A stretch of DNA of 61,090 nt, counting the filler, from Dugesia japonica (lineage: Eukaryota): the NCBI GenBank assembly GCA_001938525.1. It is 5 parts of 5 records of this genome, joined end to end, with 100 filler letters (N's around TTAATTAATTAA, not from the genome) between each part and the next. Parts side by side here need not be neighbours in the genome. Positions count along the whole stretch, not along the records: positions 17,038 to 33,101 come from MQRL01648093.1; 4 more parts are not named here. One strand, given 5' to 3'. Within the stretch, counting starts at the first letter, position 1, and each line of letters starts with the position of its first letter. A program made the translations under genes and the position numbers. Below are positions 4,423 to 51,074 of the stretch, piece after piece. Under the pieces are notes generated by a model. It saw only the letters and a list, made by a program, of their open reading frames with translations, searched no databases and was not told the DNA's origin.

Positions 4423-5145
4423 CATCAATTAAAAAATATTTTCAAATATTTTTCTAGCTAAATATCCAAAATTTTCGACAATTGTAGGTGATCCAATTAT
4501 TTTGCTTTTGCCTTAAGGTTTTTAAATTTATTTTATAAAATAAAATTCGAATAGAAATCAGTTGAATTGATAAGTTAATTTAACTATTATTGACAGTGTA
4601 TGTCTATCCAAGTTAGAAGAGGGATAGTGCAGCACTAGATCAGCTGACCTGGTACCAACAGAAATCCAAAATGATATACGATTGCAAAACAAATATTGAT
4701 GTGAAGTAGTTTTTCAAGTCATTATGAAGTAAGCAATCTTACTTATTGTATAATAGGAATATAACATCGGCATACCTTATAAATGATAATTTTAGTCATA
4801 TTAAAAGTTAGCGATTAAGTGACATAAATGCTATTTATTTGTTTCTATTCATGCTTTAAATGAAATTTTAGTCAAATGGCCAAAAATATAAAGAATTTAT
4901 GTTGATGGATAATTAGCAAGGACATATCCAAAGGGAAGCGATCGCTCTTCCCCATAACCGGCTTTTAAAAAAGTTATAAAATGATAAGGAGCGACTATCC
5001 ACATGAAAATTAGGATAGTAGTATGAAAAAGTAAAGAAGAAATAATTAAAAACAATTTGGTATTAAAAAGTCGAAAAGAATAAAATAAAAACAATTATAG
5101 ATTAACAGTAAATTAGATAGATAATGGAGCACTAAGTTACATCCC

Positions 5146-5269
5146 AGGTGTATTACAAAGTGGTTTAGAAATTCGGTTTCAAATTTTGGTTTAGTAATTT
5201 TAATATACATCCAAAATTACTAAACCAAAATTTCAAACCGAATTTCTAAACGACTTTTGTAGAACGCCT
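5146..5269. repeat. Palindromic MITE-like hairpin (~55-bp arms)
   Basis: aggtgtattacaaagtggtttagaaattcggtttcaaattttggtttagtaatttt pairs with aaaattactaaaccaaaatttcaaaccgaatttctaaacgacttttgtagaacgcct around a ~12-nt loop. Confidence 0.8.
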
Positions 5270-6677: not shown

Positions 6678-8900
6678 TGTTGGGTTTTTAGGATTTTGAT
6701 GTTTTAACAAAACACTGGTTTACTTTTGATATAACTCGCTTTCATTCTGAACAATACATCATATCTAGGGGCATATCTAAAAACCACAAGCATTTGTGTC
6801 CCCTCTGTGACATGCCCCTCTTCTTACAGGTTCTTACTCACTAAATTTATGAACCCAGACAGCAATCTCTCTCACTTGCTCAGTTAAAATTTGACACCGT
6901 AATTTTACTATAACAAACAAAAGCATAATTCATAACACGCTAATAATATCCATTAACATATTATTTAATTATTTACAGGTTGCATTTGATCAGCAATTCT
7001 GAGTCCAAGTCTACGGTATTTGTCTCCCTAACCTATTCATCTGGCTTCGATCTATAATTTAACCATAGCGTCCTCAAGGAGACGAACAAGGAGCTTTCTC
7101 GGTCGGCGTATGTCTTGATGACATCTGCCATAAGCTGGTTTGCGGGCTGAAGATAATGGAGCACTAAGTCACATCCCAGGTGTATTACAAAGTGGTTTAG
7201 AAATTCGGTTTCAAATTTTGGTTTAGTAATTTTAATATACATCCAAAATTACTAAACCAAAATTACGCTCCTTCTTCCAACGCTTCTGTGCTGTCAATAA
7301 CGTCTTCTTGATTACCATTTCCTCGTTTGATTTGTTCACTAAAATAATTTTACAATGAGGGACGCATAAAAAATAATTATGACAAATTATCGGTAAGGTT
7401 ATTATCATTCTATTATGGAAATGCGAATCTCTCACTTTATCACTTTTAGGAATAAAAGACACAAAACCCTCATTTAATTAAACTTAATTAATATTGTCAT
7501 TAAATTACTCGCCACTTCTGCATTTTCTTAACATGAGATTACAATATCGTCGTGAAATACATATCACCTTTCTTCAGATAAATAAAAAGAAACAACATCA
7601 TCTCAACACTGTATTTACTTTATTTTAATTCATCCAATTCCACAGAGACGATTTCTCTCAACCCCACCAGCTCTTGCATTATCTAAAACTCCTCGGCCTC
7701 CATTTCATCGTCAGTTGAGCCCACTAAAGTCCGAACGTTAGTAATTTCCAACGTAGTATTAGTGGAATCCGGCAACACCGAGGTCTCCTTTCCAGGATCC
7801 CTCTGGTCACATTTCCTTTGGTAGTTAGTCAAAAGAAGGTGGGCTTCCTTGATTATCAATTGTAGTTGTGGTGTCTCTAAATCTGCCCACATATTCGTGA
7901 TTTCTAACTCCCAACTTTCTCTTTCCCGCCTCAACATGGATTAAACTTCCGACCACTCCACACAGAAGAGTCTATCCTCATTGATGTGTGCCCCATTATA
8001 CTCGTCCATTCTTTCACTGTTCTCATTTTGATTCAATTTATACATCTATGAACAAACAAAATTATATTATTACAAAGTGTTATTTTTTAAATTAATTAAT
8101 TAAAGCTTGATAACAACAGAATTATCCGTTTCTTTGACCTGCAGCTTATCTGATCTTTGTGACCATTTCTAGAAGGCGAACCAGAGAAGATGTCTTATTT
8201 CCACAACTCGTCTTCCTTCACTTCAAGGATCTCTTCGTTATCCATTAAGCCTATTCACAACGACTTGATCAGTAGTCCTCCTAACAACTTTTGTCCCTAA
8301 ACATTTGCAATTTCCGACATGATTTTGCATTAACATTTTATCCATGAACATTCTTTTTTGTATGAACATGCTTTTTTGCCAATAAATCTTTCTGCTTTTA
8401 CGACAATAAACATTTCTGACTTTTCAACATTAAACATTTCAGCTTTTTCACAATAACTATTTCTGCTTTTCGAGGACACGGATTCTTCCCGGAGAACTCC
8501 GATACATGTAAGGTATGAGGATAATTAAATTTAAATGTTACAAACAGAATTTACTTTTTGTAAAATATTATTCTTCCAATTTGTGTTTTCGATAATAACA
8601 GTGAAATTACGATCCTCATTTTATATTATTTTTGAAAGAATTAATAAGAATTTATTTTATTTATAAAGAATTTATCGCCTGATTCAGACAAGGCAAGATG
8701 ACTAGACCAGACTTAATTAATTTATAATAATAGTATTGAACGCTGGACAGCGTAATTATAGTAATGAAATACGGTCGTAGAGACCCCTTTAATATGATAT
8801 TATAATATAGTATATTATTTTTATTATTTAGTTCGTCATTCCCGCTTAGTACATATAATTTTTATTTCCGTCTCGCTAAATTTGGGTCTTCTACGCCCGA
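6678..8900. mobile_element. Putative LTR-like element with decayed minus-strand ORF cassettes
   Basis: Starts TGTTGGG like the LTRs at 13682 and 22375; GC-richer blocks on the minus strand, e.g. tttgtttgttcatag|ATG at 8045 reading in frame through one stop into ORF 7683..7937; right end not resolved because of the gap at 8940. Confidence 0.4.
8380..8473. repeat. Four ~24-bp tandem repeats (acaataaacatttctgctttt..)
   Basis: Direct visual periodicity; the minus strand reads EKAEMFNV-EKSEMFIV-VKAERFIG. Confidence 0.75.
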
Positions 8901-9064
8901 TTTTTCTTTTTCGCTCTTTTCAAATAATTCAAGAATAATNNNNNNNNNNNNNNNNNNNNNNNNNNNNNNNNNNNNNNNNNNNNNNNNNNNNNNNNNNNNN
9001 NNNNNNNNNNNNNNNNNNNNNNNNNNNNNNNNNNNNNNNNNNNNNNNNNNNNNNNNNNNNNNNN

Positions 9065-16937: not shown

Positions 16938-17037
16938 NNNNNNNNNNNNNNNNNNNNNNNNNNNNNNNNNNNNNNNNNNNNTTAATTAATTAANNNNNNN
17001 NNNNNNNNNNNNNNNNNNNNNNNNNNNNNNNNNNNNN
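16938..17037. other. Artificial scaffold spacer N44-TTAATTAATTAA-N44
   Basis: Identical 12-mer (stop codons in all six frames) embedded in Ns at 16982, 33146, 43396 and 52378. Confidence 0.95.
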
Positions 17038-18071: not shown

Positions 18072-18793
18072 ATGGTAAAAGAAAACAAGTCTATGTTAAA
18101 TAATATTAATATTATAGCAGCGACTAATTATTCACCAAATTCGCAAACAGAAGCAAATTATTCCAAATTACCACATCTTTCGTCAAATAATATGGCGATA
18201 ACTAAAAGTAGTCCTAAGATTATTAACAAGTTAACCAATCAAAATATTCATTCTATTACAAACCATATGCACCAGATACCCTCAAATAACTACAGAAATG
18301 GTCATCACAATTTATCGTCAAATCGTAATCCTCAAAACAGTGGATTTGGAGGAGTTTATGAAGTTTATAACAATAACTTATTAGAAGGTTCACGATTAAT
18401 AAGACAACTTGGAAAGCGCAATAATATAGTTGCAATTGATACTGAATTTCCAGGTGTGGTATGTAGAGTAAATGGTGAATATACCAGTACAACATCACTT
18501 TCATATCATAATATTAAATGTAATACCGATCTAATGAAACCTATTCAAATTGGATTTAGTTTTTTTAATCAAAATGGAGAACAATCCGAAGTTAACGCAA
18601 CTGTGCAATTTAATTTAAAATGGGATATGGAAACAGAAGTGTTTGCAGAAGAATCTATTACATTATTAGAAAATTCCGGAATCAATTTTCAAGAACATAA
18701 GATGCACGGAATTGAAATTCAAGATTTTGCTGAGGTTTTTTTAGCTAGTGGATTACCTTTAAATGATAAAATTACGTGGATTGGATTTCATTG
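18072..18793 (+). CDS. CAF1: CAF1/POP2 (CNOT7/CNOT8 family) deadenylase, coding exon 1
   Basis: AIDTEFPGVV catalytic D/E motif, YHNIKCNTDLMKPIQIG, QFN, LLENSGINF, WIGFH; donor TG|gtaatt at 18794 (phase 2). Confidence 0.95.
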
Positions 18794-20264
18794 GTAATTT
18801 TAATATTTTATTTTTTTAAAATTGTAATTGTATGTCATATAATTAGCAAGAATTCATTTAATTGTTAAAATTAGATATTTTATCATTCTTTAAAAGTCGA
18901 TGAATCTAAAAAATTAATACGATGCTTTAAAGTGTTCTTAAAAATGTTAATTCTACTTTTGAATGGAAGATTACAAATGTCAAATATTGTGTTTAAATTT
19001 TTGTTATTTTTTGTATAACACTCTCGCTAAGCATCAAGTGGTAAGTACACATTAATTATAAGTGTCTAAATAATTTGACGTATAAAATACAAATTGATTA
19101 GTTTTTATGATCTAAGTTAATTTACCTAGGGTTTATGCTAGAAGTTAAGTTACAATTCCGTGTTACGGTGGGGTTAATTCATAATTTCTTTAGAATATCA
19201 TTACAATACATCGTGTTGTATAAATTGTGTCACTGAAAATTATGACATTGATTATTTTGAGTTACGCAAAATATTAGTCTCTAATATTGAAATTGCTTAA
19301 AATGCATTGAAATTTCAATATTAAAATTAATTTAGAGTTGGTTGACTTTGTTCATATACCTATACAGTCTAAAAAAATAGTAAGTGTAAAAATGCATTGA
19401 AATACACTAAAAAGAAGTTATTTGCTGGATTTTGATTGGATCCCTATAATATAAGAAAAATTAATTCATACAATAAAATTTTCCTACACTAAATAAAGTT
19501 TAATAAGTAAATTATGAAAATAAATAATAACCTGATTTTTGCGGCAATCTGATTGGCTAAAAATATAGAATTGAAAATAATTAGTAATTTATAACTTNNN
19601 NNNNNNNNNNNNNNNNNNNNNNNNNNNNNNNNNNNNNNNNNNNNNNNNNAATTTATAACTTAATTTTTTTAAGCTTAATGATTATAGAAGGTAGAAAAAA
19701 TAAGTACACAGCGTGCACACACAAAATCCTAAACACCTGAATTTTTTAAATTTATGTTTTTAAAGATTTTTTAATTTTTGAAAAATTTATATTTTTGTTT
19801 TTATTTTAAAAATAAAATTGGAAAACATTTTAAATGCGTATTCTTGATAGGCTCCCAAGTAGCCTATCAAAGCAACTTTTTTTATTTCTTGATGCTTTTA
19901 CATTTCACCAAGATTTTGCTGTGGACAAAAAACGTATGAAGATGGAAAAGATCTGAAAACTGTGAGTGAGATCCTAATTTCGAATCCTTAAAAAATATAA
20001 TTTATAATCATACTCTCACCACAACGGACAACTACAAAATACTCAATTTACCACCTTACAGCCAATTTTTAAATTCTATCGAAAATTATTTGCATTTTAA
20101 ATCCCAATTGCGGAGAATTTCGACCAAATCCGTCTTCAAATTTCTTCAAATAAAATCGGCTATTTCCTCAATAGTCGAAGAAGATAGAAATACTAGCATG
20201 ATGAAATACTGTGACAAAATAAAAACCTTTTATCCCGCATGTTAAAAATGTAAAAATATTATGA

Positions 20265-20298
<34 letters not shown>

Positions 20299-20819
20299 GT
20301 ATGTCTTTTCTTAAATAATGTCTAAATTTTGAAAATAAATATAGTTTATTAATTAACTTATAGTTTATTTATATATAAACTATATAGTTATTTATATAGT
20401 TTATTTATTAACTTAACTTCAAATTGATTAATTCAATACTGAAAAATAATTAATATTTAAAAATAATAATTTAAAATAATTTTTACATTTAAAATTCAAA
20501 ATTATAAACAAATAACTCAATTATGGTATCATTAAAAATAAAATCATACGTATTAAACTTTAAACACTGTAAACGTTTAACAGATGATTATAATATAGAT
20601 ATCTAAAAATGTAAGAAAAAATAAACAAACACACAGCAAGCAAACATACATATACACTGTTTTCTCATAAAAATTAATAAGTTTAAGAGCTACAATTTTA
20701 AAATTATAATATGAATTTTGAAACTATTTCAAGTGCGAGTTTTGACTCTACAAAACCCTACAGGCTACCAAAGCCGTTAAAAGTAATTCTTTAATTTTTA
20801 ATTCATATTAATTATATTT

Positions 20820-21562
20820 TAACAGGATTTCTGCTGTAGACAAAGAACGGATCATAAAAGCCCATAAAAGGGCAGAGATTTGAAACCTGTCAGTAAAATT
20901 TTAAATGTAAATTTCGGCTCTTTAAAAATATATAATCTCCAAGCAATCTTTAAATTATTTTATTTAAAATAAATCAAAAATCATATTTTGGATATAACAG
21001 AACGGGATCAATTTCCAAACGAAAACATAGGCGACACAAAAAATTTGATAATGAATAAACGGGGAGGGTCATTTGTTAGACGAAATCGATAAAAAAAAAA
21101 CCATATGACCTTAGAAGAAATAAAACTATTTTGTATAGAAAAAGGTCTAGATACTGCAACAACAACAATATCGACCCTTTTGAATATTAGGTTTTACACA
21201 ATAAAGACATTACGATATTCTATTGGTGAAAAAAATAAAGATCGGGTCAAAATTTTAAGAAAAAATAATGTTGAAAAATTTTTAGAAGTCAAAATACGGT
21301 CTAGCCAATGCATATATATAGACGAGACTTATTGCAACTTATGAACCCAATGATTAAAAAGAAAAAGCTTCAATGGCGACAATACCAACTCAGCGTGTCC
21401 AAATTATTTCAATCATAATGGCTATTGGAATCAAAGGTCCAATTCATTTTTTAATACACCAGAGTTTCGTCAAGCAACTGTTGTACATGAAATTCATCCA
21501 TGACCTTTCTTTAAAATGAGATGCAAGTGAATATTATTTTATTTACGATAATGCATCTATTC
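20820..21562 (+). mobile_element. Tc1/IS630-like DDE transposase pseudogene, 5' part
   Basis: ISAVDKERIIKAH (HTH start), MTLEEIK, IYIDET, SIIMAIG, YDNASI motifs; a related N-terminal copy lies at ~19910-19990. Confidence 0.75.
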
Positions 21563-24500
21563 TAGAGCTTGAAATTTTCCCATGTATACCAAAGTCAGTC
21601 AATTTATCAAAAAGTATTCTCTTGAGGTTAAGAGCGGTAGACCTAATTTCTAAATGAACTATGCCAAGATTAAATATTTTTATAGATCCATTGATAATAA
21701 TCTGTATGTTTATCCCCATAAATGATTCACTTCGCCAAGAAACTGCATCAAGCTTTTTAAAAATCAACTTCCCTTTTAAAATTTTAGATATAACTTTGTA
21801 TTTATGATAACTAGCATCTAAAATTTTCTTAATATTCACACTTTAATTGACATTAGTTGAACTCGATGAACAATGAATCTAGAAAAAACTTAAAAGCTCC
21901 TTCGTTAAAAATTTCAACGGTATTCCTGTGAGCAATAATTCTAACATTTTCTGATTAAATTCATCTTGACAAAGATAATAAGGAATGTATAACTTTCTTT
22001 TGCTGCAGGTATTATCAACTTATCCGTCGTCATCTACTTCATTATCTTTCATTATCTTTGATTTTTTAATATAATTTAAAGTCCAATCTTTATAAAATCT
22101 AATGAGATGTCTGTTGAAATTGTGTTTATCTAAGGTAAATTAATTGCTTCTAGTGCAGACGTTTATTTTGCATAAATGCTTGGATTGATTTTTGCCATTA
22201 TTATCGACTTCCGTCTTAACGAACATAGACTTAAAGTATGTATAATCATCCTTTGTTTTAGATTTCCATATCAATTCCTCTTCCTCACTTTCCCATTTGA
22301 AATCCAGTGAACGCTTTTTTTTATTCTCATTTTTTTATTAGACATTTTAAATCCTAAATTTAAGATATTATTTATGCTGGGGTTCACCCTGAGTTGGTGT
22401 TAGAAAACTTGTGGCTGGAGAAAAGACAGCCTTCAGGGGACCCTTTCAAGAATTTATCTGATGTCCCTAATTAGATTCTCGTTACAGAGCGGTTCACTCC
22501 CATCTCTTGGAGTACTCACTCGTATACCTTTAGTTCGTGTTCATCATTTTTCCCTTATTTTTATTTATTAAATAAAATTTAACAACATTCATAAGTAAGA
22601 TTTATTTTATATTCATCACATGAACTCTAATGGATCATGGTCTAACCATTGGCCTGGTTCGAGCTCCATGAAATTAAAGGCAGCCTCATCATCCTCGCTG
22701 TTCCAGCGAGTCCATGTCTCTTCTTCCAGTCGAGCTGCTTAATCCGCTATATACCCTTGCAGAAAATCGATTTTGTACGTGAGAATCTGTTTCGTGTGTT
22801 CGGCTAACTCGCTTTGTTTTTTAACGATCACATCTAATTAGACGGTTGCGCTGGGACAAGTGCTGAAAAGGATTCGTTCATTCTGGCGCTCAAGAAGTAG
22901 CTTCTAGATTAAGCGCTGGCAGCGTCGTAAGTTGATGGGGAGGCGGATTCTTGGCACTACAAAAGAAATAATTAAGAAAGAGATAGTCACGATAAGTTTA
23001 ATTTAGACAATTAAATAACTTGAAAATTTATTAAGGTGAAAACACGAATTATTCATTAAATCAGAACCATATATTTATAACACCAAAAAGATGAAGTCAT
23101 GTTATGGGCGTGAAGTTTGTTGATTTTTCCGTCATTACGGGTTCTAAATGCATAGCTTTTTTCAGTGTCAAGATATCCTCAACCAATTTATTCTCTCGGT
23201 CATGGAAGGACCGGATAAACTCTGCAAAGGACTCTATTTGATTTTTCCAGAGTCTCTCTTGAGCATGAGAGGCCTCCGCTTCCTTTCTAAATGCGATGCA
23301 TTTATTTTGTACCGCTTAACTTTACTTTATGCAGTCGCCGTGTCGGCCTACCATCGACGTTTAGCGACGTTAGGTAATCTCTAAATCTTCACTTTTTGGT
23401 CTGGGTGACGGAGCGATTTAGAGAAGAATGCACTAGAAATTGAACTCAAATTATCAACTGGTTATAAAGTCAGACTATCTTTGAATATGAATGAACAAAG
23501 AGTCTAAAACTAATTTAAAATGGAATTCATCTAATCATCATAATGAATCAAACGATTATTTAATGGAAATATTATTTGTAACTAAAATATTTTATTAGAA
23601 ACTATCGCAAAGTAAAACCATAAAGGCAGTGTCTAAGAATGTGGGGCACTCTCTGTGGGTGGTTCGATATTTTCATCACTGCCACCACTCGAAGTATTCC
23701 GACACTCCAAAGGGTGTCACTGATTAGTCCTCCCAACCACATCGGGGTGTGGACCGGTTCAAGAGGAGCAGGCGTGTTTTCTCTCCAAACTCGATCATAA
23801 ATTGGCAAACCATTTACATAGTCGGTGGATACCATTCCCACAGAAAAAGTCACACGACTGCGATCAGGGCCGGTCCAGTAATAATACTCCTGTCAATCAG
23901 TGGCGTCCATCAGTCTTTTGTCATAAGCAATTCTAGCAGGCAGGTTGGACCGCTCTGTTAAAAGCCCAGCATCGCGGTTATACGGGTTTAGATATTTTTA
24001 CAATATCATCCGGCCGGTGGCCCTGTCCTGAATCACTTCCCATTTATATTCCATTTAAGACTGAAAACAAAGTATCAATCAGTTAATAACTATCTTAACA
24101 ATAACAATATTTGAACATTATCCCTCTCTATACGGAAAACAATATAGTTAGAAGACAAGTTATATGAATAAACAACACCCGTATAGCAGGAATTTATTCA
24201 ATCATATAATAACCACTATTATCGTCTATATCAACCTCCCACAGAAGGTTTCAATTCCTTGAAACATTGATGATCTAATTCGTCTGGAGAAAGAATACGA
24301 TCGGGGAAGAATAGATGGCCGATTAATTGTTTCTCGGCGTGATTATTTTCTCTCTCGATGTATGAAGTTCAACGCGTCTTTCAGAATTCTAGACATGTCT
24401 GAATAAATTATAAGCCTACATTATAGGTAAATTATAGTGTAGTGGATTTCAAATCATGGCTAGTTATGTCAACCGGTTGTACTGGGTGTTGGAGTAATAA

Positions 24501-25781
24501 TTCGCTCCGATTTCTGGTTTAATCATATCTCAGGGGTAATAATTTTAATAATATTTCTAACAGAAACATCAATAATAATGCTATTGCACTGAATAATTAG
24601 ACGAGGGTTTATATGTGTACTTGTAATTATATGATAATACTCATAATAAATATTTTAATTTGAATAATAGTAAAATAATTGCTGTTATTGAGATCTCATG
24701 AGTTTATTTAAATTATCAACAACCCTAGGAACATTAATAATAATCAGTGCATTGTCACCCAATAGTTTCATTAAGTTGGAAAATGCTAAATAACATAATG
24801 GCAATTTTATAATAAATAATTAAAATTGCTATGGCAGGATTAATGCCTGCTAATTCATATAGTTAAACGATGATCAGTATTTATTGCCATAATATACCAA
24901 TGTGGAAATGACCTTACGTTCATCAATTTGAGATAATGCATGACAAATACATCGTTGGAAAGACGCCGTGTAAGTTAATAATGTTAAGTTACTCAGCAAG
25001 CTATCCAACTGCTAATAGAAATATCGATTTTGATGACATAGACAAAAAGACTACACTGGAATCAGTTAGATGTTGTCTATCACATGACTCATCTCATGTA
25101 GGTATGTCCTATTGAGTTACAGCATGCTATTCTAACTTATTTTATTTTTTTAGACGAGAATTTTCTGCAACAAAGAGTGATATCAATTGTTACTTCTATT
25201 TGGAATTACTTCTGTCATTGTCTCCTTTTTATTTTCTGGTTCCTCATTGTTTCATTCTTCAAACCATTTTAACGGGACATTCTGTTGATGGTAGGATATT
25301 TTTGTTGGACCATTTGTCCTGTAACTTTCTCCTTCCAGTTTTTCGTACTAGAATCTTTTATGATCTTCCAGGGTGAAGATATCTTACAAAAACTCATTTT
25401 CTGTTAATTATTATTCTGTTTGTAATAAATTAATTAATTTTTCTTGATAATTAAATATTATTTTCTGACTATAATTTACTTGTTCTTCTAATAAATTATA
25501 ATTTTCCTTAATTATTCCGATCGATTCCAGGTAATATCTTATTTACCCAGTATTTTCTTTTTATCTTTTGTATTTTTCTTCTTGCTTTTTTACCTTTCTT
25601 TTTTCGATATAATTATTGTACTTTTAATCAGATTTTTCTTTTAATTTAATTTAATTTTTTTAAGTTAATTTTATTTTTTCAGCCCCCTCCTTTAATATTT
25701 CTGATTTGGGCCCTTGGTCCTAATTTTTTTTAAACCGGGCGTTTTATTCCAATATTTATTATAAATTTATATAAATTTATG

Positions 25782-25815
<34 letters not shown>

Positions 25816-26447
25816 NNNNNNNNNNNNNNNNNNNNNNNNNNNNNNNNNNNNNNNNNNNNNNNNNNTTAATTATTCCGATCGATTCCAGGTAATATCTTAT
25901 TTACCCAGTATTTTCTTTTTATCTTTTGTATTTTTCTTCGTGCCTTTCTTTTTTCGATATAATTATTGTACTTTTAATCAGATTTTTCTTTTAATTTAAT
26001 TTTTTTAAGTTAATTTTATTTTTTCAGCCCCCTCTAATATTTCTGATTTGGGCCCTTGGTCCTAATTTTTTTTAAACCGGGCGTTTTATCCCAATATTTA
26101 TTATAAATTTATGTAAATATATATATATTTATTAAATTAACTTAAATAAGAACGGAACTATTCTTTGCGAAATTTTCTCAAATATATCTGATAAATTAAA
26201 CCTTTTTGACATTAATTAAAGAAGCCATAAATATTTGTATTTATAGAATTGTAAATGAAAAACGAATTAATATAAAGAAAATCAAAGATCATTTTAAAAT
26301 ACAAAATTCATCTTTCTCTATAATCATAAACTATTTTATAATTTAATTAAGCCGGGGTATCGGGGCAACAGAAGCCCCGGCTCCAAACTAATATTTTTTC
26401 TTTGCCCCAGCCCCGGAGCTCTAGTATCGGGACAATTTCAAGCCCTG
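21563..26447 (-). mobile_element. Internally deleted hAT DNA transposon with TIRs and 8-bp TSD
   Basis: TIRs tagagcttgaaattttccc / gggacaatttcaagccctg; perfect TSD ATCTATTC at 21555-21562 and 26448-26455; gccccg subterminal repeats; transposase remnant 21582-22330 (BED-like CKINVC..NFNRHL; LDAVSWRSESFMGINIQ). Confidence 0.9.
22375..25754. mobile_element. Long solo-LTR-like element with antisense ORF cassettes
   Basis: Starts TGCTGGG and ends (T/C)CCAATA, with TTTA on both flanks; its first 160 bp share ccc.tt.aagaattt.atctg.tgtc and cctttagttcg.gt.ca with the LTR at 13682; the right end is duplicated across the gap (alternative end 26096). Confidence 0.6.
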
Positions 26448-26700
26448 ATCTATTCATAACAATGCCCTAACAACAGAAAATCACATAGTTATTCACCTAC
26501 CACTATACAGTCCAATAAACCGAATAGAAAATATCTTTTCCCATTTAAAATCAAAACTAATTAAAATAACAATTAAAGTAACAATTTGGATTTAGACTCA
26601 AGTTCCAAATTCCATCAGATTAAGTCAGCAATTTTCCAAGTAGTAGAAGTGGATAAAAATATAACTCTAAAATGTTATTAAAATAACTAAATATTATTGC
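26448..26700 (+). mobile_element. Tc1/IS630-like transposase pseudogene, 3' part
   Basis: Continues DNASI|HNN...NHIVIHLPLYSPINRIENIFS (LPxYSPxxNPIE motif) after the hAT insertion. Confidence 0.75.
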
Positions 26701-26889
26701 ACAAAATACTTGTTGGAAAAAGACATTTCGTGAAAATATAATTTCTTCTATTTCTCTATAATTATATCTAAAATTTTTCATTATTAATTATATAAAGATA
26801 ATTTATTACAAAAATTCTTAATAATTATTAAAAACCATCAAAAATTAATTTACATAAAAAATTTTAAAAATAAAGAATTGTTAAATATT

Positions 26890-27790
26890 AAAAACTTAAC
26901 AACATTAATCCCTTCCACGAAAAGCATTGATTAATCATGGTGATTCAAATATTAAAGGCCATAAAATTCAGAAAGAAAGAGTAACAATAATAGATTGTAC
27001 AACTAGTTCAGGAAGCCATTAACTAAAATCAGAAGTAATTGGAAAATCGGCCAGACCTCGATTATTAAAAGAGTAGAATACAGATCACAGAAAAATTCAT
27101 GGATGGACACAAAAAAAAGGTTTTTAGAATGGCATTATAGAATATTTATCCCAAAGGTTAAAAATTTCATAATAAATACTTATTTTCGATAACGCACAGG
27201 TGCACTCTAAGTTCAAATATATTAGCGAGGATCTGGAAATTTTCAAACGCCACATCTATATTACAACCTATGGATCAAGGTGTAATCGCATCTTTGAAGA
27301 AAATATATGAGAAGCAACTATTGGAAAAATTATTATTAATTGATAAAGAAAAGGATGTTGATGTTGTAGATTTTATAAAGTCTTGATGCATGCTCTTCTT
27401 ATCAATATTACTGATAATAATAGTAAAATTCTTACACAACAAGAGGAGAACGATAATACTGCAAAAATAAAGGAAGTTTTTGATTCTTATAGAAAAAGAT
27501 TCGATGATAATATTTACGAAAATCATCTTAAAGAATAGATTTTAAGTGATTTACAAGATTCTGATTGTCATTTTAAATAACGATGAAATTTTTGCTTTAG
27601 AATTAAATGCTCAAGAATGCAATGAATATGATTCAAGTTTGTCAGAGGAGATTGATAATGTTAAAATAACTAATTCGGAGACAATAAAGGCTTTAGAAAT
27701 ATATCTATTAACTGGTTATTAGACCAAGAAAAATATGACTTCCGATTATTATTGCTTTAAAAACTAAACTATTGGAAGAGGCTTGCGACA
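26890..27790 (+). mobile_element. pogo/Tigger (DDE_1, CENP-B-like) transposase pseudogene
   Basis: GHKIQKERVTI, VIGKSARPR, FDNAQVH and QPMDQGVIASLKKIY motifs with stops and frameshifts. Confidence 0.85.
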
Positions 27791-28014
27791 AGAGCAAAAT
27801 GATTTTAAGTACACATCAAAATTTTTTATTATTAATTTGATATCATATGAATTATAAAATAAAAAAATATTTAGCATTCAATAATGTTAACAAAATCAAA
27901 AATAAAAAATGATGTAATTTATAATGGTGTACTTTATAATATATTTATAATAATTATAATATAATATATATAATTTAGATTTTCGATAAGAATTACTTTA
28001 TTCATTGTTTTTAG

Positions 28015-28273
28015 TGCTTATGACTGGGCATATATGATTAAAATTTGCACTAATTTACCGGATATGCCTGAATCGCATGAAGAATTTAGTACATTGCTCT
28101 TGTTGTATTTTCCTAAAACCATTGACATAAAAACTATAATGACTGATAAAAATCTACCTAAAAGTGGTCTACAGGATCTAGCTCGTAGTCTCAATGTCGA
28201 GAGAATCGGTGTGCAACATCAAGCTGGCAGTGATGCAAAATTAACTGGTGATACGTTTTTTAATTTTTTTAAA
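28015..28273 (+). CDS. CAF1: CAF1/CNOT7-8 deadenylase, coding exon 2
   Basis: Acceptor ttgtttttag at 28014 restores GFHCAYDWAYMIK; contains IDIK and GLQDLA..ERIGVQHQAGSDA (remaining DEDDh residues); donor aaa|gtaagt at 28274 (phase 0). Confidence 0.95.
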
Positions 28274-28619
28274 GTAAGTTATGCAAACAATCAGGTTAAT
28301 ATTTTTAAAAATTATTCGTTAACATTTTTAATGTTGGAAAATTCTGTTTTTATGCGAATTGAAAAAAATTATAACGTTGAATCATATAAGCGTTAAATTA
28401 CATCAAATTGCGTAAAAAAGAACGTAATGATTTTTTTGAGTTACGTTAAATCCAATTCGCATAAAATAAACTCGCGTAAAAATAGAAATAAGTGGTATAT
28501 ATATGTTGTATATATAATAGAAATATAACTGTTATTGCTTATTTACTGTAAAATAACAAATCCACTTTTTTATGGTTTGGAGGTAGTATATATTTGTTTA
28601 ATTCTTTTAAATTTGAACT

Positions 28620-30428
28620 TCTATTTTGATTACCACTCTTTGTTAATTTTCAAATTTGAAGTTATAAAATCACGTTGCGTCACTTAAATGTTGCAGCTAA
28701 TCCATGATTTTCGGTGTTTCGCGTCAACATAGAGAAACTATTTTTCGTCGCCGGTGACAATGTGACAAGGGTTTCTTCCCGGGATTTCCGTTCTCGATTT
28801 CCCGGGAAATTCACCAAAAATTTCATTCTCGATTTCCCGGGAAACGCAAGTTCATTCCCGGGAAATTTAATTTAGACTTAATCATAAAGATAAATAAGAA
28901 AAATATAAAAAAAATGTGTTAAAAACAATTTAATGTCTTAGATTAACATTTTTATAAACGTAATAACTCATCTATGAATATTGGCAATCAAAAATATATA
29001 TTTTTTGATATAAAGTGGTTTAAAAGTAAAAAAATCTCACAGAAGTATAGTTCATTTAATTTGAATTGCGGATCTAATTTAACTATTAAATTTTAATTTT
29101 TCTTGCAAGTTTACTTTTATCACACCTAATAAAAATATTATTAAACGTAATATGATATAATAAACGTTATGTTTAATATAATATTTGAATAATTTAAATT
29201 AAAATAAATTCTAAATAAAACTTTTTAATGTTATGGAAATAAAAAATGTCAACAGAAAAAAGTTGGAGATCATACTTTTCAAACTCATTAAATGTAATCA
29301 GATAATTGTGTGAAAGGGTGGTTCAACAAGTGATATGAATTGTAATATACAAATACAGCATAGAATATATTCAATATATAACTTTGAATAATAAAAGCGA
29401 TGTGCTAGCTACACCTTCCCCAGAAACACTTGATAAATTTTGTGTAGGCAATAAAAATTCAATTGTAAACTTTATAAAAATGCAATCTTTGGAAGAAATA
29501 AGTGCAAGACTTGCAGCTGTAGATGCTATTTTGAAAATTACTTTTATTCGTGAATCTTTATCTGCTAAAGGATATTATCTTCCATAAAATCTTCACAAAT
29601 AATTAACATTAATGAATAATGAATAACTTCTATGCAAAAATGAAATTATAATTTAAAGTTAAATTTTCAAATCTATTAAAATTAAATCAGAAATTTTGCT
29701 TGCCTTTAGATAAATGGGCTAGTAACCGTAATCGTAGATATATGAATATAAACATTTTGTTCAATGATTAAAATTGTTCAATGATGAAAATTTAGGATTA
29801 GTGAGAATTTAGAGAAAATGTGGAGCAGAAAAAACTTTAGAAATAGTTAATAATCAATTACGTAATTTTCCCGGGAATAGCATTTTAGTATTCTTTTTTG
29901 TTGATCAAGGAGCAAGTAAACCGGTCACAAACGTGGACCTCAGATTTGTTTTTCTCCATCAAATCACATGGAATCCAAATCCCAGTTTTTGAACTTTTTT
30001 CATCCGATAAAGATGGCTAAGTAATGCTTTTGGTTGCAATGCATTTGTTGAACCAATTGCATTGTTAATTGACGGGAATTTTCACCAAGTTTATTCATGT
30101 GCTCCTCATTGAAATCAACGATTCATTTCTGGAAGGTCAAAATTACCGTTTCTTTTATTGCATTCGCACCGTAAACAGTGAAAATTTCGCATGTCGCTTA
30201 AGATGCATTGAGCCACTATTAAATCTAATTAGCAGGAAGTGCAGTAAATGCTTGTTTTGGTTTACTTGACTGACAATTTAAAATATCCAAAATTTATCAA
30301 AATTATATTGAATAATTAAAACAAATTTGACCTTGTAGAGCGAAAATTTCTCTTTCAAATAACATATAATACATATAAACTATTTTTAAATAAAACTAAA
30401 ACGGACATTATTTATTCCCCACCTGATA
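28620..30428 (-). mobile_element. Degenerate mariner element interrupted by a hAT fragment
   Basis: Terminus ta-tcaggtggggaataaataatgtccgtttt at ~30400-30428; N-terminal HTH-like peptide (CEIFTVYGANAI), a WIPxxL-like region ~29930-29990, and IVTGDEK at 28742-28762. Confidence 0.8.
28767..29885 (+). mobile_element. hAT transposon fragment nested in mariner
   Basis: agggtttc terminus with repeated ttcccgggaa subterminal motifs at both ends; remnants KGGSTS, SLEEISARLAAVD and LDKWASNRNRRYMNINI (hAT D-x-W-T/S motif). Confidence 0.8.
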
Positions 30429-30983
30429 CTAAGGTGTTAAAAAGTAATTTAAAGTTTGTTATCTCAATGCGTTAAGATAAATTCAATATAAAGTTGTGTT
30501 CTTAATTGAGAATCAAATCCATTAACTTTTTATGGAAATTACAATACAAATTTCATTATCTGTTTAAAGATTGAAAACTAAGTTAGCTTGTATTTAATCT
30601 GTATGTGCAATGAAAACTCAATCGTTTTATCAATATTGTGTGTGTAATTTTATCGTAGTCAGTAATGACTTAATATTAATATTTTTTTCTCATTTTTCAT
30701 GTTAAAAAAATATTTTTTTACGTTTGAATTTTTAAAATTTTTGATAATTGGATTTTATCCATTTTCTTGTAAATGTGATAAGATTTTTCAAACAATTTTT
30801 ACTTGCGAATTTATGCTAATTTGGAAATTAAAATCTTTTGGTCCATTGCAAAATATATTCTCGTTTATTTTATTCTTATTTCCTCCATCGAATGTAATTC
30901 GTTGATTCTTACTTTTCACATCTTAACGTCATGCAACTTTACTTATCTTACGAAATGCTAAATAGAGATCAATTAGTTACATG

Positions 30984-31158
30984 TAGGGTTTTCAAAACCA
31001 GTATTTTGGAATTAAACATACCGAAACCGAAAATACCGGTATTTTGGTATTAATAATTTTTATAAATTTTAAATAATTTTAAACATGTATTTTTAATCAA
31101 AATTTTTAATACCGAAAAACTGGTATTGCTCGTTAGAAACACAGGTATTTTCGGTATC
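30984..31158. mobile_element. hAT-type MITE/terminal fragment
   Basis: tagggttttcaa terminus followed by multiple aataccg/cggtatt subterminal repeats. Confidence 0.55.
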
Positions 31159-31304
31159 AATTTTTACCTTATACTTTTTAAAAAACAAATATCTAATTTT
31201 CTAAGTGTACAGCTTTTTATTATAGGATCCCTTATATATTTATTAATTTATGCTAATATTTAATAGTAACAATCTACATATATAAAATTCAACTTAATTT
31301 TTAG

Positions 31305-31655
31305 ATTTACTGCAATAGCATCATAGACGAGAAGTATATTAATCTTATTTATGGTCTGAATTATTGTCCAACAAGTGGTGCAAATATGCTATGGTTACCA
31401 AATCAGTCTCCAACTCCAGAAGACCTAGAAAATCAGTGTCATAATGCCAAACATTGTCATAATATTGTTAATTCTATGAGAGATCCTGATCTGACTGATG
31501 ATATATTTTGTTATTGTCATCATTCAGAGTTTAACATTAATGAGTCAGTCAATCGTGTTCCTTCATCTTGTAACAGTTCTTGTGCAGAGAGTATCGGTCG
31601 CTCATCTAGAGAATCATGTGTTCAATCACAAAATGATAGTTTAGACGAAACCTAG
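31305..31655 (+). CDS. CAF1: CAF1/CNOT7-8 deadenylase, coding exon 3 (terminal)
   Basis: Acceptor aatttttag at 31304; reads IYCNSIIDEKYINLIYGL (CAF1 C-terminal IDxxKYxxxLYGL motif), in frame with ORF 31386..31655. Confidence 0.9.
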   Translation: MYCNSIIDEKYINLIYGLNYCPTSGANMLWLPNQSPTPEDLENQCHNAKHCHNIVNSMRDPDLTDDIFCYCHHSEFNINESVNRVPSSCNSSCAESIGRSSRESCVQSQNDSLDET

Positions 31656-31727: not shown

Positions 31728-33914
31728 TCACCGTGTACAATATATAATACTTGAAAACTTTCAGATTACATTTTTCGATATTATGATGCATATATATCTT
31801 GTCAAATATTTGAGGTTACTTACTATCATCATTTATAGGATTTGTTCATTTTGATGAGTCGACGGAGGTGCTCTTTAATTTTTTAATTAATTAAATTTTT
31901 TGTTAATTTTCAAATTTTTAGAGATGTTTTACTTTTAAAATTAAAAATGATTTACAAGTATAAATTCTTAATGTTCGTAAAAAGATTATCATGATTTATG
32001 GAAGTTTATTTTTATTTGATTAAATATTAATTTTTAATGTACAGGTAAAACATTTCTTATGATGTTGAGCTTTGCTCAACTTTTCGTATTATGTTATTCG
32101 GATAAATAATTTCAGTGCCTTTCGATCTTCGTGTGAAAACTGTTTTTGGTGCAATGTAAATGTGTGTAGAGTTTTGCTTTGTCGTATTAATTAATAAGAA
32201 TATATCTATTTAATAGTGTTACTATATCTTTGATATTTGTATGGATTTAAATTAAAATTTATTCGAATCTATTTTTAGGATGAAACTAAAATACGTGCGA
32301 AAAATTTTCGCTTTAAATTCAATTTTAAAAATTTATGTGTATAGAATAATTATTAACAAAGTCTACAGGAAATGTTAGGATTTTAATATATCTTAATTCT
32401 ACTTTGGTGAGGGGTTTTATATGTTTATTTTGTTAAGTGTGTTTTACAAGATTCATTTACTTGATTTATGAGGGTAGAATTAATCTCATAAATTTTAGGA
32501 GATGGGTTGTGACTAAGAAGTAAATTATATTAAGATATTAATTTCTAATTTTTCGAATATTATATCAGCCCGTACTTATCTCATCAAACTTATTTGACAT
32601 TTGCAATTAATCAGTAATTGTAATTAGTAGGTAGATAGTGGCGCACTGGATCAATGTCGAATTTTTCAAGGTTTCTAATACTGTATTCTAATTGATCGAA
32701 GTTAAATGAATGTAGGTTCAGGTAATGTCCATGACAACCATTAATAGGTTAATGTAATTGGTTTTGACGACCAATTTTCGAAAGTAATCTAGTATCCGCC
32801 ACTCAGAATGCAGTAACTCAGACAATTTAAAGAATAATTATTCATACTTTAGAAAAAAATGATAAAATCTTTAAAATTTTAACTTTCAGTCAGCCTTAAC
32901 ATTAATATTCCCCGGGGAGACTTATTAATAATCTCTAGACAAACTAAATATCAATATTTTAATTATTTATTTTTGTGTAATGTATGTATTATTTGATCGT
33001 AATTTGTGAACTTTGTAAATGTAAAATATTTTATTAATATTATCGTAATTTGCCTTGCATATGTATTGTATTTTCTTTGTTTAAAATTGGTCTGCATTGC
33101 ANNNNNNNNNNNNNNNNNNNNNNNNNNNNNNNNNNNNNNNNNNNNTTAATTAATTAANNNNNNNNNNNNNNNNNNNNNNNNNNNNNNNNNNNNNNNNNNN
33201 NATTTATTTGATAATTCCTTTATTTAATTTGACTTTTTAATCATAATTGTTTTCTTGATTTTTATTTATTGGCGCATAAAAGGATTCTTGGATTGGTTTG
33301 AGTCCTAACAAACACACACATATATTTATTTATTTAAGAAATTTATGCAATTTATACTATTTATAACTACTATTCGAGGTTTTCTTTCACTGAAATATAG
33401 CTATCCAGTTTCAAGTTTATATTAATATTTTTTAGATCCAAAATTCACAATTGGATTCATTTTACTTGTTCATTTCTTTAACATATTTTTTATTCACATT
33501 ATTAAATTTTGTTAAATAATTTTATAATTCAATATTACATCAAATCTATATTTGTAATAAAACCCAATTAAAATTGTTTACATATGTGAAATACTCTTGG
33601 ATCAAGTACATATAATGATATACATGATATATATATATTCCGAATTTACGAAAAACCTTTCTGAAAATCTTTTAAAGTATTAATTGAAATAAAAATAAAA
33701 TTTATTAAAACAGAGAANNNNNNNNNNNNNNNNNNNNNNNNNNNNNNNNNNNNNNNNNNNNNNNNAAAATGTAATTATATATTACATATTTCAACTGTGC
33801 TTCGATATTTGTTTTATTAATTTCTATTTGAAGATACTTTTAAGATTTATGAATATATGGCTAACATTGAATTTTTTATAATAATATTTAATAGTATTTA
33901 CTTTTATTTTAGAC

Positions 33915-35231
33915 ATGCCTGAATTATATTCTACTACAAATCTAATTATTAATAACATTCCTTCTGCAATCTCAGACGAACAATTAAATAAGCTGTTTAG
34001 TACGTTTGGTCCAATTAAGTCATGTAAAATAATCAGAAGCAATGAAAAAGATAGTAAAGCTTTCGGTTTTTGTGAATATAATGATGCGCGCTCAGCTAAA
34101 CAAGCTTTATCACAATTAGATAATTATAGATTAAATGATCGTATTCTAAAAGTTTCATATGCAAAATTATTTCCAAAACCTAAAGGTAAGTGTATCGAAG
34201 TAGTTAATCTGCCTAAAACAACTCAAGAGGAAATGGTGCGCAAATATTTCGGTCAATTTGGACGAATAGCTCGATTAAGATTATTGTTTAATAATATTAA
34301 TGGAAACCAAACGAAGACTGCCGAAATAGTATATGAAAATAAGGCAGATGCAGACAAAGCAGTAATTAAAAACATGGTTAAATGGAACTATGATAATAGT
34401 AAACATGTGATAGTTATGGTGAGTCTTACGTCGTCAGAAAAGTCAAAATCCGAAAGAGAAATAAACGATAGTAAAGTTGTGAATAATAATCTTTTGTATA
34501 TTAATTCCAGTAAACAGCTCGGTGATAACCATTTTTATCTTCAACAATCAAACTTAAACAATGCTTCTCACATTGAACAAAGCTACAATGCTAATGCATT
34601 TGATTTATCGAATTTAAATAATATTGTTAATTGCGCGTCTTTTACACCAATTTTTCAAAATCCTTTTCAATTTTCAAATGGATTTTATTCAACCCAACAT
34701 TTTAATAATGTTGCTATTCAAATTCCTCAGTACAATTCGTACGAGATCAATGATAAAACAATTCAATCTTTCAGTGCAATCAATAACGCATTTCCAATAC
34801 AATATCCATTCGGTTACCCGAATTATAATTACGTTAACACTTCTAATCAACTGCCATTGGGTATTCCTTTAATGTACACACAGTTACCCAATAGTTATCC
34901 AATTAAAACTGCATATGAAAAATCAATGAATCCAATCAAACCAGATTATATTTATAGTAACAGTAGTAAATCGATTTCCAGAAACTCCTATGTTGTTTAT
35001 GTTTACAATATCGGTAATTCAACCACAAAAGAACAGTTGAAGGAGTTATTTGCACCGAAATTCGGAAAAGAAATAATCAAAGTCGACGTTCCTAAAGACT
35101 CTCAAAACGGTTCCAATAAGAATTTCGGATTCGTTACGTTTGGTAATTATCAGAAAGCTCAATTGGCCATTCAAGAAATGAATGGTAAAGAATTTCAAGG
35201 CAAACCGTTGCAAGTTTCTTTCAAGAAATAG
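33915..35231 (+). CDS. elav: ELAV/Hu-like RNA-binding protein (RRM1-RRM2-hinge-RRM3), intronless CDS
   Basis: 438-aa ORF; TNLIINNIP..FGPIKSCKIIR..AFGFCEY..ILKVSYA (ELAV RRM1) and VYVYNIG..KNFGFVTF.NY..A..AI..MNG..LQVSFK (ELAV RRM3). Confidence 0.88.
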   Translation: MPELYSTTNLIINNIPSAISDEQLNKLFSTFGPIKSCKIIRSNEKDSKAFGFCEYNDARSAKQALSQLDNYRLNDRILKVSYAKLFPKPKGKCIEVVNLPKTTQEEMVRKYFGQFGRIARLRLLFNNINGNQTKTAEIVYENKADADKAVIKNMVKWNYDNSKHVIVMVSLTSSEKSKSEREINDSKVVNNNLLYINSSKQLGDNHFYLQQSNLNNASHIEQSYNANAFDLSNLNNIVNCASFTPIFQNPFQFSNGFYSTQHFNNVAIQIPQYNSYEINDKTIQSFSAINNAFPIQYPFGYPNYNYVNTSNQLPLGIPLMYTQLPNSYPIKTAYEKSMNPIKPDYIYSNSSKSISRNSYVVYVYNIGNSTTKEQLKELFAPKFGKEIIKVDVPKDSQNGSNKNFGFVTFGNYQKAQLAIQEMNGKEFQGKPLQVSFKK

Positions 35232-39284: not shown

Positions 39285-39490
39285 ATAATGGCTTTTGAGC
39301 CATGAAATACAATATTGTCCACATAGAAATGTCAATGGATTCTAATACATGATTTGATTATACTCGACACATTGCTGCATACGCTCCAATTTTGCTACCA
39401 ACAATGGTGGATAAAACATACCTATTGGATCAAATACACGAATAATATTTGATTTGACATGAGAATAACAATCCAATGCTCACCATCACC
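39285..39490 (-). pseudogene. Adenain-like cysteine protease fragment (Maverick/Polinton)
   Basis: GEHWIVI /frameshift/ RVFDPIG ... YNQIMY*NPLTFLCGQYCI: the His, Asp, (Gln) and Cys motifs of clan CE adenain-type proteases. Confidence 0.8.
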
Positions 39491-40030
39491 AAATAAATGC
39501 TTGTTACTATCAACCCACATACTCCTCAAAAGTAGCAAGCGTACATCACCAACAAGAATGGGATCGACTATCAATAAGTAAATAAATAGTTGTCTTATAA
39601 CACCATGTAATAATGGTTTATGCAAACCCTTTACTTGTTCTGTAGACTTGTTGAATTTTACAGAAGGAAGACCAAGTATTGGCGAAAGACTCTCATCAAA
39701 TGATACATATGCAACATTATCAAGTAATTTAAACATGACCAGTCCAAATTTTGAATCTATAACAAATTCTTTAAATATTTTGTGGCATAATTTAATAAAT
39801 GATGTAACCAGATTATCCAGATCGGTAACCGTTAAATCAATTTCGAATTCAAAACAATTTATTTCTGTTTTATTTCAGTAAATTTTAATTTAACATCAGT
39901 TTTGACAATTGTTGTTTTATAACTAAAAGGAACTAAATAGACAAAATATATCTTAAAACTGCCGATTACATATTAGTTCGACTAAACAACATCTATTTCT
40001 ACATCCCCTCTCAAATTTATTGTTGGTATT
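39491..40030 (-). pseudogene. Maverick/Polinton minor capsid (penton) protein fragment
   Basis: LSPILG...RQLFIYLLIVDPILVGDVRLLLLRSM matches the YVYxDIVxPxxVGDxxxPLLRxV signature. Confidence 0.75.
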
Positions 40031-40079
40031 TATGATTTACTTTTTGCTCTCAAATTGGGTAGCGCCTGTCTTTACTTTC

Positions 40080-50492: not shown

Positions 50493-50544
50493 AGATAAAA
50501 CCTAAACAAATTTATAAAATGGATAAATTAAGAAATGATGCATA

Positions 50545-51070: not shown

Positions 51071-51074
51071 ATGA

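Follow-up and report, generated by a model that had tools for sequence, protein, structure and literature searches.

The window, i.e., the whole analyzed stretch of 61,090 nt, contains an element with LTR-like ends that lies inside an intron of a gene for a CAF1/CNOT7-family deadenylase (Table 1), and both exons flanking this intron have Pfam CAF1 matches above the cut-off. The element starts with TGCTGGGG at 22375 and ends with CCAATA at 25754, and, as proposed in the original prediction, a TTTA direct repeat abuts both ends; given the local composition, this 4-nt match would arise by chance with a probability of 0.012. The terminal inverted repeat is short (~7-9 nt) and imperfect. TG..CA termini with a short inverted repeat and a target duplication within 4-6 bp are both expected of a Ty3/Gypsy solo LTR, and both are found here. 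The left junction is also present in the independent run X1 (record 2, 22314-22919), and no joint that skips the element, i.e., no empty site, was seen among the joints listed (best 15 of 18). To the right, the last 283 nt of the element occur a second time. The right flank is identical beside both copies, and this doubled 3' end is likely an assembly overlap of two alleles.

Table 1. Features of the element at 22375-25754 and of its surroundings
Feature	Coordinates	Strand	Comment
Intron of host CAF1/CNOT7-family deadenylase gene, enclosing the element	18794-28014	+	GT 18794, AG 28013-28014
Left target-site duplication	22371-22374	.	TTTA; chance 0.012
Whole element	22375-25754	.	3380 nt, TG..(C>T)A ends, decayed
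Terminal block kept across the family	22375-22560	+	Common to 13682 and 50492
AT-rich tract with AATAAA on both strands	22560-22606	.	Minus 22606, 22569, 22565; plus 22571
Cassette A	22616-22957	-	Acceptor AG 22957, then TG and 112 codons
Cassette B	23097-23433	-	AG|TG at 23433; 72 open codons (23315-23100), coiled-coil-like
Cassette C	23602-24061	-	Acceptor 24061, ATG 24054, 150 codons
Cassette D	24225-24399	-	Acceptor 24399, ATG 24396, ~55 codons, broken near 24350
Candidate shared splice donor A|GTAATT	~25209-25214	-	GT would start at 25209
Internal block common to 49507-49702 of the 1.5-kb relative	25229-25407	-	Candidate promoter/leader region
3' terminus and right TTTA duplication (25755-25758)	25734-25758	+	15/21 to the 49004 terminus
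Repeat of the element's last 283 nt and right flank	25866-26132	+	92% identity, beyond a 50-N gap

The sequence at 22375-25754 is a real repeated mobile element that is multi-copy and has LTR-like ends and a target duplication. Read mapping establishes its membership in a multi-copy family: 1904 X3 contigs map to the element, mostly 85-95% alike, and the X3 bin depth reaches 10173 over the core of the terminal block (22422-22456; 104 contigs at 22432) vs 48-71 in the flank, 12068 over the core of cassette B (23170-23218; 89 contigs at 23186), and 620-730 over 25298-25543. Several X3 joints among those listed (best 15 of 18) connect neighboring blocks in unchanged order. To this extent, the original prediction is supported. 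No paired LTR, PBS, PPT, or linked gag-pol was found within the window. Gypsy pol pieces are located at ~39900-42140 and 51700-52150, and by eye no element-type ends lie beside them. The window contains no tRNA, and no related loci were found in JGI metagenomes or IMG/VR.

The 5' ~190 nt of the element are related to sequences at 13682 and 50492, as had been proposed, with local scores of 84 and 73, respectively, vs shuffle means of 21 and 20 (0/500 shuffles reach the score in each case); by blastn, the likeness is 70% over 117 nt. The description of these relatives as a ~450-bp LTR, by contrast, was mis-delimited. The 50492 copy extends over 1.49 kb, ending with CCCCAACA at 49004, and the 13682 copy by eye extends beyond its N gap. 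The end at 49004 matches the element 3' end at 15-16 of 21 nt; the higher figure (16/21), obtained with the duplicate end at 26076-26096, is unsurpassed by any other non-self match to this terminus in the window. The 1.5-kb relative (50492-49004) has both ends and one internal block in common with the element (score 65 vs 37.7 +/- 6.1; 0/500 local shuffles) and lacks the cassettes. A PBS-like tract after 50063 was dropped, since homology to the element continues to 49004.

On the minus strand of the element, four blocks with a GC content of 0.39-0.47 are separated by AT-rich spacers of 139-168 nt (GC 0.21-0.27), in agreement with the original prediction. The acceptors, start codons, and AATAAA motifs following block A that it quoted are present (Table 1), as are the quoted peptides in their frames. 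Cassette A has in-frame stops at codons 17, 39, and 72 and is entered without an ATG of its own. The 5' half of cassette B is broken, and its entry frame does not continue unbroken into the open part. Cassette C has in-frame stops at codons 19 and 54, while cassette D is the least supported block. The AT-rich tract at 22560-22606 is a candidate 3' end of a cassette transcript; minus-strand AATAAA motifs are also present in the A/B (23032), B/C (23596), and C/D (24198) spacers. No paralogy was detected among A-D (all |z| < 2).

A second element, at 6678-8939, contains different blocks in the same acceptor-led layout, with entries AG|ATG at 8046 and AG|TG at 7339. Its last block matches cassette B weakly (score 45, z 5.9, 0/1000 shuffles); over whole frames, this match has a z of 4.0, and an unrelated control pair has a z of 3.7. 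Because the 5' ends of the two elements are not similar in DNA (421/500 shuffles reach the score), the 6678 element would be at most a distant relative.

Cassettes A-C carry a coding signature. When A, distal B, and C are pooled, their codon positions 1/2/3 have a GC content of 0.51/0.38/0.48 (P=0.001; best phase, 5000 shuffles), with values of 0.54/0.34/0.52 for A. For cassette C, the database protein P0007 matches residues 1-66 with 47% identity (E 2.4e-11, z=30), and the match begins at the same Met. The first stop of C is replaced by another letter in 24/24 X3 contigs covering that site, and 6 of the 10 other listed differences from X3 copies are synonymous (expected 28%, P=0.03). All three listed differences in cassette A are non-synonymous, and for the four blocks together 7/16 are synonymous (P=0.12); these differences were drawn from the best 40 of 537 rows of the X3 comparison. 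The proposal that the frames were once open is thus backed by codon-position bias, the P0007 match, and the synonymous lean in C, but not by stop depletion, which alone is non-significant in every block (P 0.09-0.68). The argument for decay that most internal stops are one transition from a sense codon carries no weight because this holds for every stop codon. Overall, blocks A-D were likely once protein-coding.

The encoded proteins match no known family in our searches. For the cassettes, Pfam, PHROGs, and PDB sequences gave nothing at the cut-off, including gag, pol, and env, whose absence had been judged by eye; in A-D, Pfam found no transposase, no host family, no TRP28 (PF04195), and none of the Burro polyprotein domains (MATH/BIR/BCL2/ankyrin/env). 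The large protein searches took in B, C, and P0007. A 50% protein library returned P0007 and P0008 for C; P0008 was rejected as a homolog, its score adding up five weak matches to bacterial Ig repeats. A homologous-protein search among near lengths accepted 0/7 candidates for C, gave no candidate for B, and for P0007 accepted only P0007 itself among 3. In the protein atlas, P0007 had no usable match, and distal B fell among generic coiled-coil clusters (0.90-0.93, low recognition), which we do not count as evidence. Modeled with AlphaFold from a 2-row alignment, P0007 reached a pLDDT of 47.5. Rfam gave no family and one sub-threshold match.

The original prediction described the cassettes as acceptor-led. 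Acceptors are indeed present at the entries, but acceptor-like sites are common, with 14 on the cassette strand of the element and 2.5 per kb in the window. Of the 13 AT-to-GC steps that the four TG elements have on their cassette strand, 3 show an acceptor and then TG or ATG, vs 2/58 outside elements (Fisher P=0.04) and 1/9 on the other strand; the remaining 10 of the 13 steps have no such site, and the test did not catch the B and D entries. Of the four blocks, only B has a donor-like site close to its end (a single one, at 23138); A, C, and D have none there. The candidate shared donor hexamer at 25209 is identical to the donor of the host CAF1 intron; two other donor-like candidates, at 24917 and 25387, are stronger, and neither is preceded by A.

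No splice joint was found in RNA run X23, in which 36 of 13.6 million reads mapped, all partially and from relatives; in X22, 0 of 10.5 million reads mapped, and this run hence provides no test of splicing. No read group at the acceptors was seen among the rows listed for these two runs, and no spliced-leader-like loose end was seen among the best 15 of 421 rows. The X1 contigs of the 22375-25754 copy are unspliced. In X23, one direction of mates predominates over A and B (e.g., 2.37 vs 0.32 at 22592-22714) and the opposite one over the terminal block (1.86 vs 0; library strandedness is not on record); these few reads lean slightly to antisense. A CT..AC joint at 22697-23221 in X3 was not accepted as a splice, being from one contig with neither run kind nor intervening sequence recorded.

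With slightly less than even confidence, we interpret the element as a decayed, solo giant LTR of a GLT-like, Gypsy-type family whose cassettes would be spliced singly to a shared leader. Its LTR nature is suggested by the termini, the target duplication, and conserved ends flanking a variable middle. A single promoter near the T-rich end would give one pre-mRNA that begins in the block at 25.2-25.4 kb, crosses D, C, B, and A in that order, and ends at the AATAAA tract near 22600, and the shared leader would be spliced to one acceptor per transcript. Acceptor choice would be mutually exclusive, given that every block is closed by a stop and has no terminal donor. At the AG|TG entries, a leader ending in A could complete an ATG at the junction, while C and D would use their own ATG just past the acceptor. 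The products may be small accessory proteins, A and B being helical or coiled-coil-like; by analogy to other retroelements, we speculate that they could act on host defense or on the element's own cycle. More tentatively still, this may be an animal retroelement lineage in which the LTR has turned into a modular multi-gene expression unit. The conserved ends would then supply promoter, leader, and poly(A) site, and the middle a swappable array of 1-4+ short genes, with alternative acceptor choice picking the gene and the start codon assembled at the junction.

We consider the planarian repeats GLT and GLT2, which we take to be classed in Repbase as Gypsy LTRs, a closer lead than Burro. Both names are used in PMC8532177, where transposon annotation is based on Repbase and GLT2 is reported to be expressed on loss of PIWI (smedwi-2). 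Read by eye on its other strand, the GLT2 probe listed there (Table S1, PMC8532177) has a T-rich AG, then TG and ~78 open codons, and also contains another GC-rich block and an AT-rich spacer; its AG|TG entry resembles those of A and B. The GLT probe has a like layout, but with ATG behind AG, and the spacers of both probes are AT-rich and 60-110 nt long (PMC8532177). The passages of PMC8532177 describing GLT and GLT2 mention neither coding cassettes nor splicing. This likeness was judged by eye over ~400 letters per probe and is not a published definition; the one GLT2 primer searched (20 nt) had 0 matches in the window when up to 3 mismatches were allowed.

LTRs are regarded as control sequences without coding function, and the coding exceptions known to us carry one accessory gene. 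If our interpretation is true, an LTR with several spliceable, lineage-specific genes would give retroelements a novel means of carrying and exchanging accessory functions, and these genes would outlive the loss of gag-pol, with solo LTRs left by recombination serving as stand-alone accessory-gene carriers spread genome-wide in large numbers. On that reading, the RNA counted as "GLT" transposon transcripts after PIWI knockdown would consist of mRNAs coding for unknown proteins. Should the likeness to GLT prove real, a marker transposon for PIWI loss in planarian stem-cell work would encode unannotated proteins, which would allow a direct test on existing RNA-seq and ribosome data. A full-text literature search did not find the coding layout; Grohme 2018, supplements, and Repbase reports lay outside this search and may describe it, and the repeat family as such could already have a catalogue entry.

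The same coding cassettes could alternatively belong to a complete, non-autonomous non-LTR element of 1.5-3.4 kb that is moved in trans by an integrase-type enzyme leaving TG..CA ends and 4-bp duplications. None of the four TG-started relatives in the window is accompanied by gag-pol, and length varies widely between the conserved ends, as this scenario would have it. However, solo LTRs commonly outnumber full elements, the inverted repeat of ~7-9 nt is shorter than Ginger-type TIRs (40 nt or more), and Pfam detected a transposase in none of the blocks; we regard this alternative as unlikely. A Ginger or other TIR DNA transposon would itself have long TIRs and encode a DDE transposase; both are absent here, and this classification was rejected.

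The cassettes could also form an operon-like array resolved by spliced-leader (SL) trans-splicing, with each cistron receiving its own cap, which we find improbable. The flatworm SL ends in AUG. SL addition fits less well than cis-splicing from a shared leader because an AUG-ended leader joined to the AG|TG of A gives a frame with 7 stops, not 3; by eye, the GLT2 block would likewise enter a frame with early stops. The spacers do stay inside the 300-nt range by which flatworm operons are defined, and Schmidtea is reported to use SL trans-splicing (PMC12582326). The spacer AATAAA motifs would also fit, but this hexamer is frequent in AT-rich DNA, and the leader-like loose ends sought in the RNA reads were not seen among the rows cited above.

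It appears distinctly improbable that the blocks derive from a single captured host or viral gene whose exons travel as passive cargo and are spliced into one protein. Exon-like GC blocks, intron-like spacers, and the intron-rich genome around the element would suit it, but donor-like sites are missing at three of the block ends, the blocks finish in stops, the C homolog shares the starting Met, no host family was matched, and the 6678 element has different blocks in an identical layout. Least probable is that GC-richer LTR modules without coding function (enhancers or structured RNA) make up the blocks, with frames arising by chance, which the non-significant stop depletion and the lack of homologs for A and D would allow and against which the C homolog, the codon-position bias, the synonymous lean in C, and the absence of an Rfam family argue.

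Compared to known systems, the solo giant LTR that we favor would share with Burro a Gypsy-type affiliation, multi-kb LTRs, and accessory ORFs (PMC6431247). Burro/GYPSM1, a giant Gypsy type from planarians, has an internal region of up to 25 kb, a total length above 30 kb, and thousands of copies, and differs in that its extra domains are in a ~4900-aa polyprotein or an upstream ORF; an ORF array in its LTR is not mentioned in the relevant part of PMC6431247, and the two are set apart by description, not by LTR sequence. Ogre LTRs are similarly long, at 1.9-6.5 kb (PMC6431247). The plant Gypsy elements Retand/Grande/RIRE2 likewise have extra ORFs of unassigned function, there antisense to gag-pol, but these are long, lie between pol and the 3' LTR, and mostly encode TRP28 (PF04195) (PMC11963269). 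The element here instead has several short acceptor-led cassettes inside a TG..CA unit, with no TRP28 match in Pfam. In Drosophila gypsy, the env ATG is built from donor AT and acceptor G (PMC2585583), a start codon formed at a splice junction as proposed for the AG|TG entries; env is one sense gene downstream of pol (PMC2585583). The element differs in having several cassettes without env similarity and a putative A+TG split. Among retroviruses, MMTV sag, nef, and foamy bel are accessory genes overlapping the LTR. HBZ and APH-2 are further antisense or LTR-overlapping examples (PMC11963269). Such genes resemble the cassettes in lying in, or being driven from, the LTR, often via alternative splicing from a leader, but number one or two per element, whereas here an array of four lies wholly inside the repeat.

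The element at 22375-25754 begins with TGCTGGGG at 22375, ends with CCAATA at 25754 and is flanked on both sides by TTTA (chance of 0.012). Its first 190 nt align with two other elements, one at 13682 and one on the minus strand at 50492 (0/500 shuffles each), an internal block at 25229-25407 matches 49507-49702 (score of 65 vs 37.7 ± 6.1; 0/500 shuffles), and 15-16 of the last 21 positions agree with the CCCCAACA end at 49004, 16/21 being the best non-self match to this 3′ end on both strands of the window. The whole T-rich tail compared with the relative gave no significance under a local-composition control (35/300 shuffles). Because relatives share both ends, the element borders are independently fixed. 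Since both ends and the internal block are common to 50492-49004 (minus strand), that sequence, which the original prediction described as a 450-bp LTR, is instead a 1.49-kb member with a shorter middle. This member and the sequence from 13682 to about 14375 are shorter relatives of the element; both contain a small GC-rich block on the cassette strand (49985-50106 in the former), in which a short frame is conserved between both copies, by eye. The last 283 nt of the element are repeated at 25866-26132, with the right flank shared and an N gap between, and this repeat is probably an assembly overlap. With a GC of 0.258, the window is AT-rich, and it contains spliceosomal introns; this composition, together with the likeness to planarian GLT repeats described below, makes a planarian host plausible. 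The host CAF1/CNOT7-family gene extends over 18072-31655 on the plus strand, with a probable last exon at 31305-31655, and transposon fragments fill its introns.

Twenty listed sequencing runs from nine studies of one organism contain part of the window, and 4 of 24 runs were compared with it at 85% likeness. Run X3, whose kind is not recorded, gave 1904 matching contigs, mostly 85-95% alike. Summed depth in X3, which is not a copy number, peaked at 12068 (23084-23206) and 10173 (22346-22468), against 48-71 in the flank; it was 250-1000 at 22469-22837 and 620-730 at 25298-25543, with most other parts at 28-200. Each peak position was covered by about 90-100 distinct contigs, and several joints, each in a single contig, connect neighbouring blocks in window order, a pattern that diverged but colinear relatives should give. 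Contigs of run X1 span this copy nearly end to end, unspliced, at a flat depth near 7 and including the left junction; therefore, the locus is real, and the X1 signal is what host intron RNA or DNA would give. This is very likely a mobile multi-copy element.

Stop counts in the four minus-strand cassettes A-D did not beat chance in any block when compared with shuffles (P of 0.09-0.68), and the argument that stops one transition from sense indicate decay fails, as it is true of any stop codon. With corrections, among them to this argument and to the 450-bp LTR, the original observation was largely right. GC1/2/3 of the A, distal B and C frames is 0.51/0.38/0.48 (P = 0.001). Searched against proteins with X at its stops, C matched P0007 at 47% across residues 1-66, starting from the same Met (E of 2.4e-11); P0007 is an unnamed singleton of 94 aa encoded on a 512-nt ENA contig. 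Among the 40 X3 variants listed of 537, 17 lie in the blocks and one of these is the first stop of C, where 24/24 X3 contigs differ from the copy at 22375-25754. Among the same 40 of 537, synonymous differences amount to 6/10 in C (P = 0.03), 0/3 in A, 1/2 in B and 0/1 in D, or 7/16 in all four blocks (P = 0.12). From sequence, a coding status is well supported for C, moderately for A and B, and weakly for D, and the blocks were very probably once coding. Searches of protein, Pfam, PHROG and PDB collections returned no family, fold or named homolog for the cassettes.

Cassette entries and the host intron that holds the element
Feature	Position	Strand	Entry or basis
D entry	24399	minus	AG/acATG
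C entry	24061	minus	AG/tcttaaATG
B entry	23433	minus	AG/TG
A entry	22957	minus	AG/TG
Host intron, 9.2 kb (CAF1-family gene)	18794-28014	plus	Pfam, border reading

Because acceptor-like sites are common, we examined objectively placed AT-to-GC steps, counting a step when an acceptor followed by TG or ATG lay no more than 25 nt away. On the cassette strand of four TG-started elements, 3/13 steps had an acceptor entry vs 2/58 elsewhere (P = 0.04); the other strand gave 1/9 and random positions about 3.6%. Acceptor-led entries are thus modestly enriched at these steps.

Because A-D end in stops, mostly without donors at their ends (donor-like sites lie only at 25387, 25209, 24917, 23138 and 22519), they probably do not serve as exons of a single protein. 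In the simplest model, one promoter and leader would lie near the conserved 25.2- to 25.4-kb block, the leader would be spliced to the alternative acceptors of the cassettes, and the AATAAA tract near 22600 would mark the 3′ end of the transcript. After the AG/TG entry of A, the third-base frame has the fewest stops (3 vs 7 and 7), and a leader ending in A could complete an ATG there. The flatworm SL ends in AUG. The donor-like site at 25209 is preceded by A, and its hexamer is identical to the host CAF1 donor. According to PMC2585583, gypsy env uses a start codon split at a splice junction. In RNA, no splice junction was found in run X23 (36 partial reads matched, from relatives), and 0 reads of run X22 matched. 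The original interpretation is partly supported, for a mobile multi-copy element with once-coding blocks but not for a junction. X23 reads over A and B tend to one mate direction and terminal-block reads to the other (tiny numbers; strandedness not on record), a pattern that would agree with cassettes running against the main transcript of the element. Equally, the order of promoter, cassettes, poly(A) and conserved end could represent the sense direction of the LTR itself, given a long R region. Shared-leader cis-splicing of the cassettes is somewhat favored.

The element is likely an LTR. Its ends are those of a Gypsy solo LTR. The planarian repeat GLT is presumably a Gypsy LTR in Repbase. 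On the other strand, the GLT2 and GLT probes of PMC8532177 (Table S1), compared by eye over about 400 characters each, show what looks like the cassette layout, with an open GC-rich block behind a T-rich AG, then an AT-rich spacer and another block, the GLT2 probe having a TG entry, about 78 open codons and an internal ATG near codon 31. Taken jointly, a mobile, multi-copy, once-coding LTR with shared-leader cis-splicing is a tentative reading, slightly short of even, its components being correlated. A Retand-type antisense ORF was rejected (no TRP28; different location), as was a TIR transposon. Ginger TIRs are 40 nt or more.

At 6678-8939 lies another element, built to the same plan from different blocks (AG/ATG at 8046, AG/TG at 7339). 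It begins with TGTTGGG, its right end falls in an N gap, and its GC-richer minus-strand blocks (P0010, of 143 codons, P0011 and P0012) lie behind acceptor-like sites; none of the three has a Pfam or PHROG family. Its last block resembles B (pairwise z of 5.9), with a whole-frame z of 4.0 where an unrelated pair gave 3.7, and its 5′ DNA has no match to the 22375-25754 element. A 114-nt stretch with an internal inverted repeat, possibly a MITE, occurs in two copies (7151-7264 and 5119-5232; 99% identical), the first of which breaks this last block.

Elsewhere in the window, the N gaps at 16938-17037, 33102-33201, 43352-43451 and 52334-52433, with their central TTAATTAATTAA spacer, are scaffolding filler, not biology. 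A single long plus-strand ORF at 33915-35231 (438 codons from the first Met) has three RRM domains in an ELAV-like layout and no entry in the protein collection searched. A decayed Gypsy pol piece at 39900-42140 (minus; RT, RNase H and integrase zinc finger by Pfam) is followed by a purine tract and then a different TG-started repeat near 40000. Beside it, a 150-codon open frame without a Pfam match (39425-39874, minus) appears, by eye, to resemble Polinton-associated small capsid-type ORFs. At 50540-52150, Polinton-type packaging ATPase-like, mariner-type transposase and Gypsy RT fragments lie in a row, by eye.
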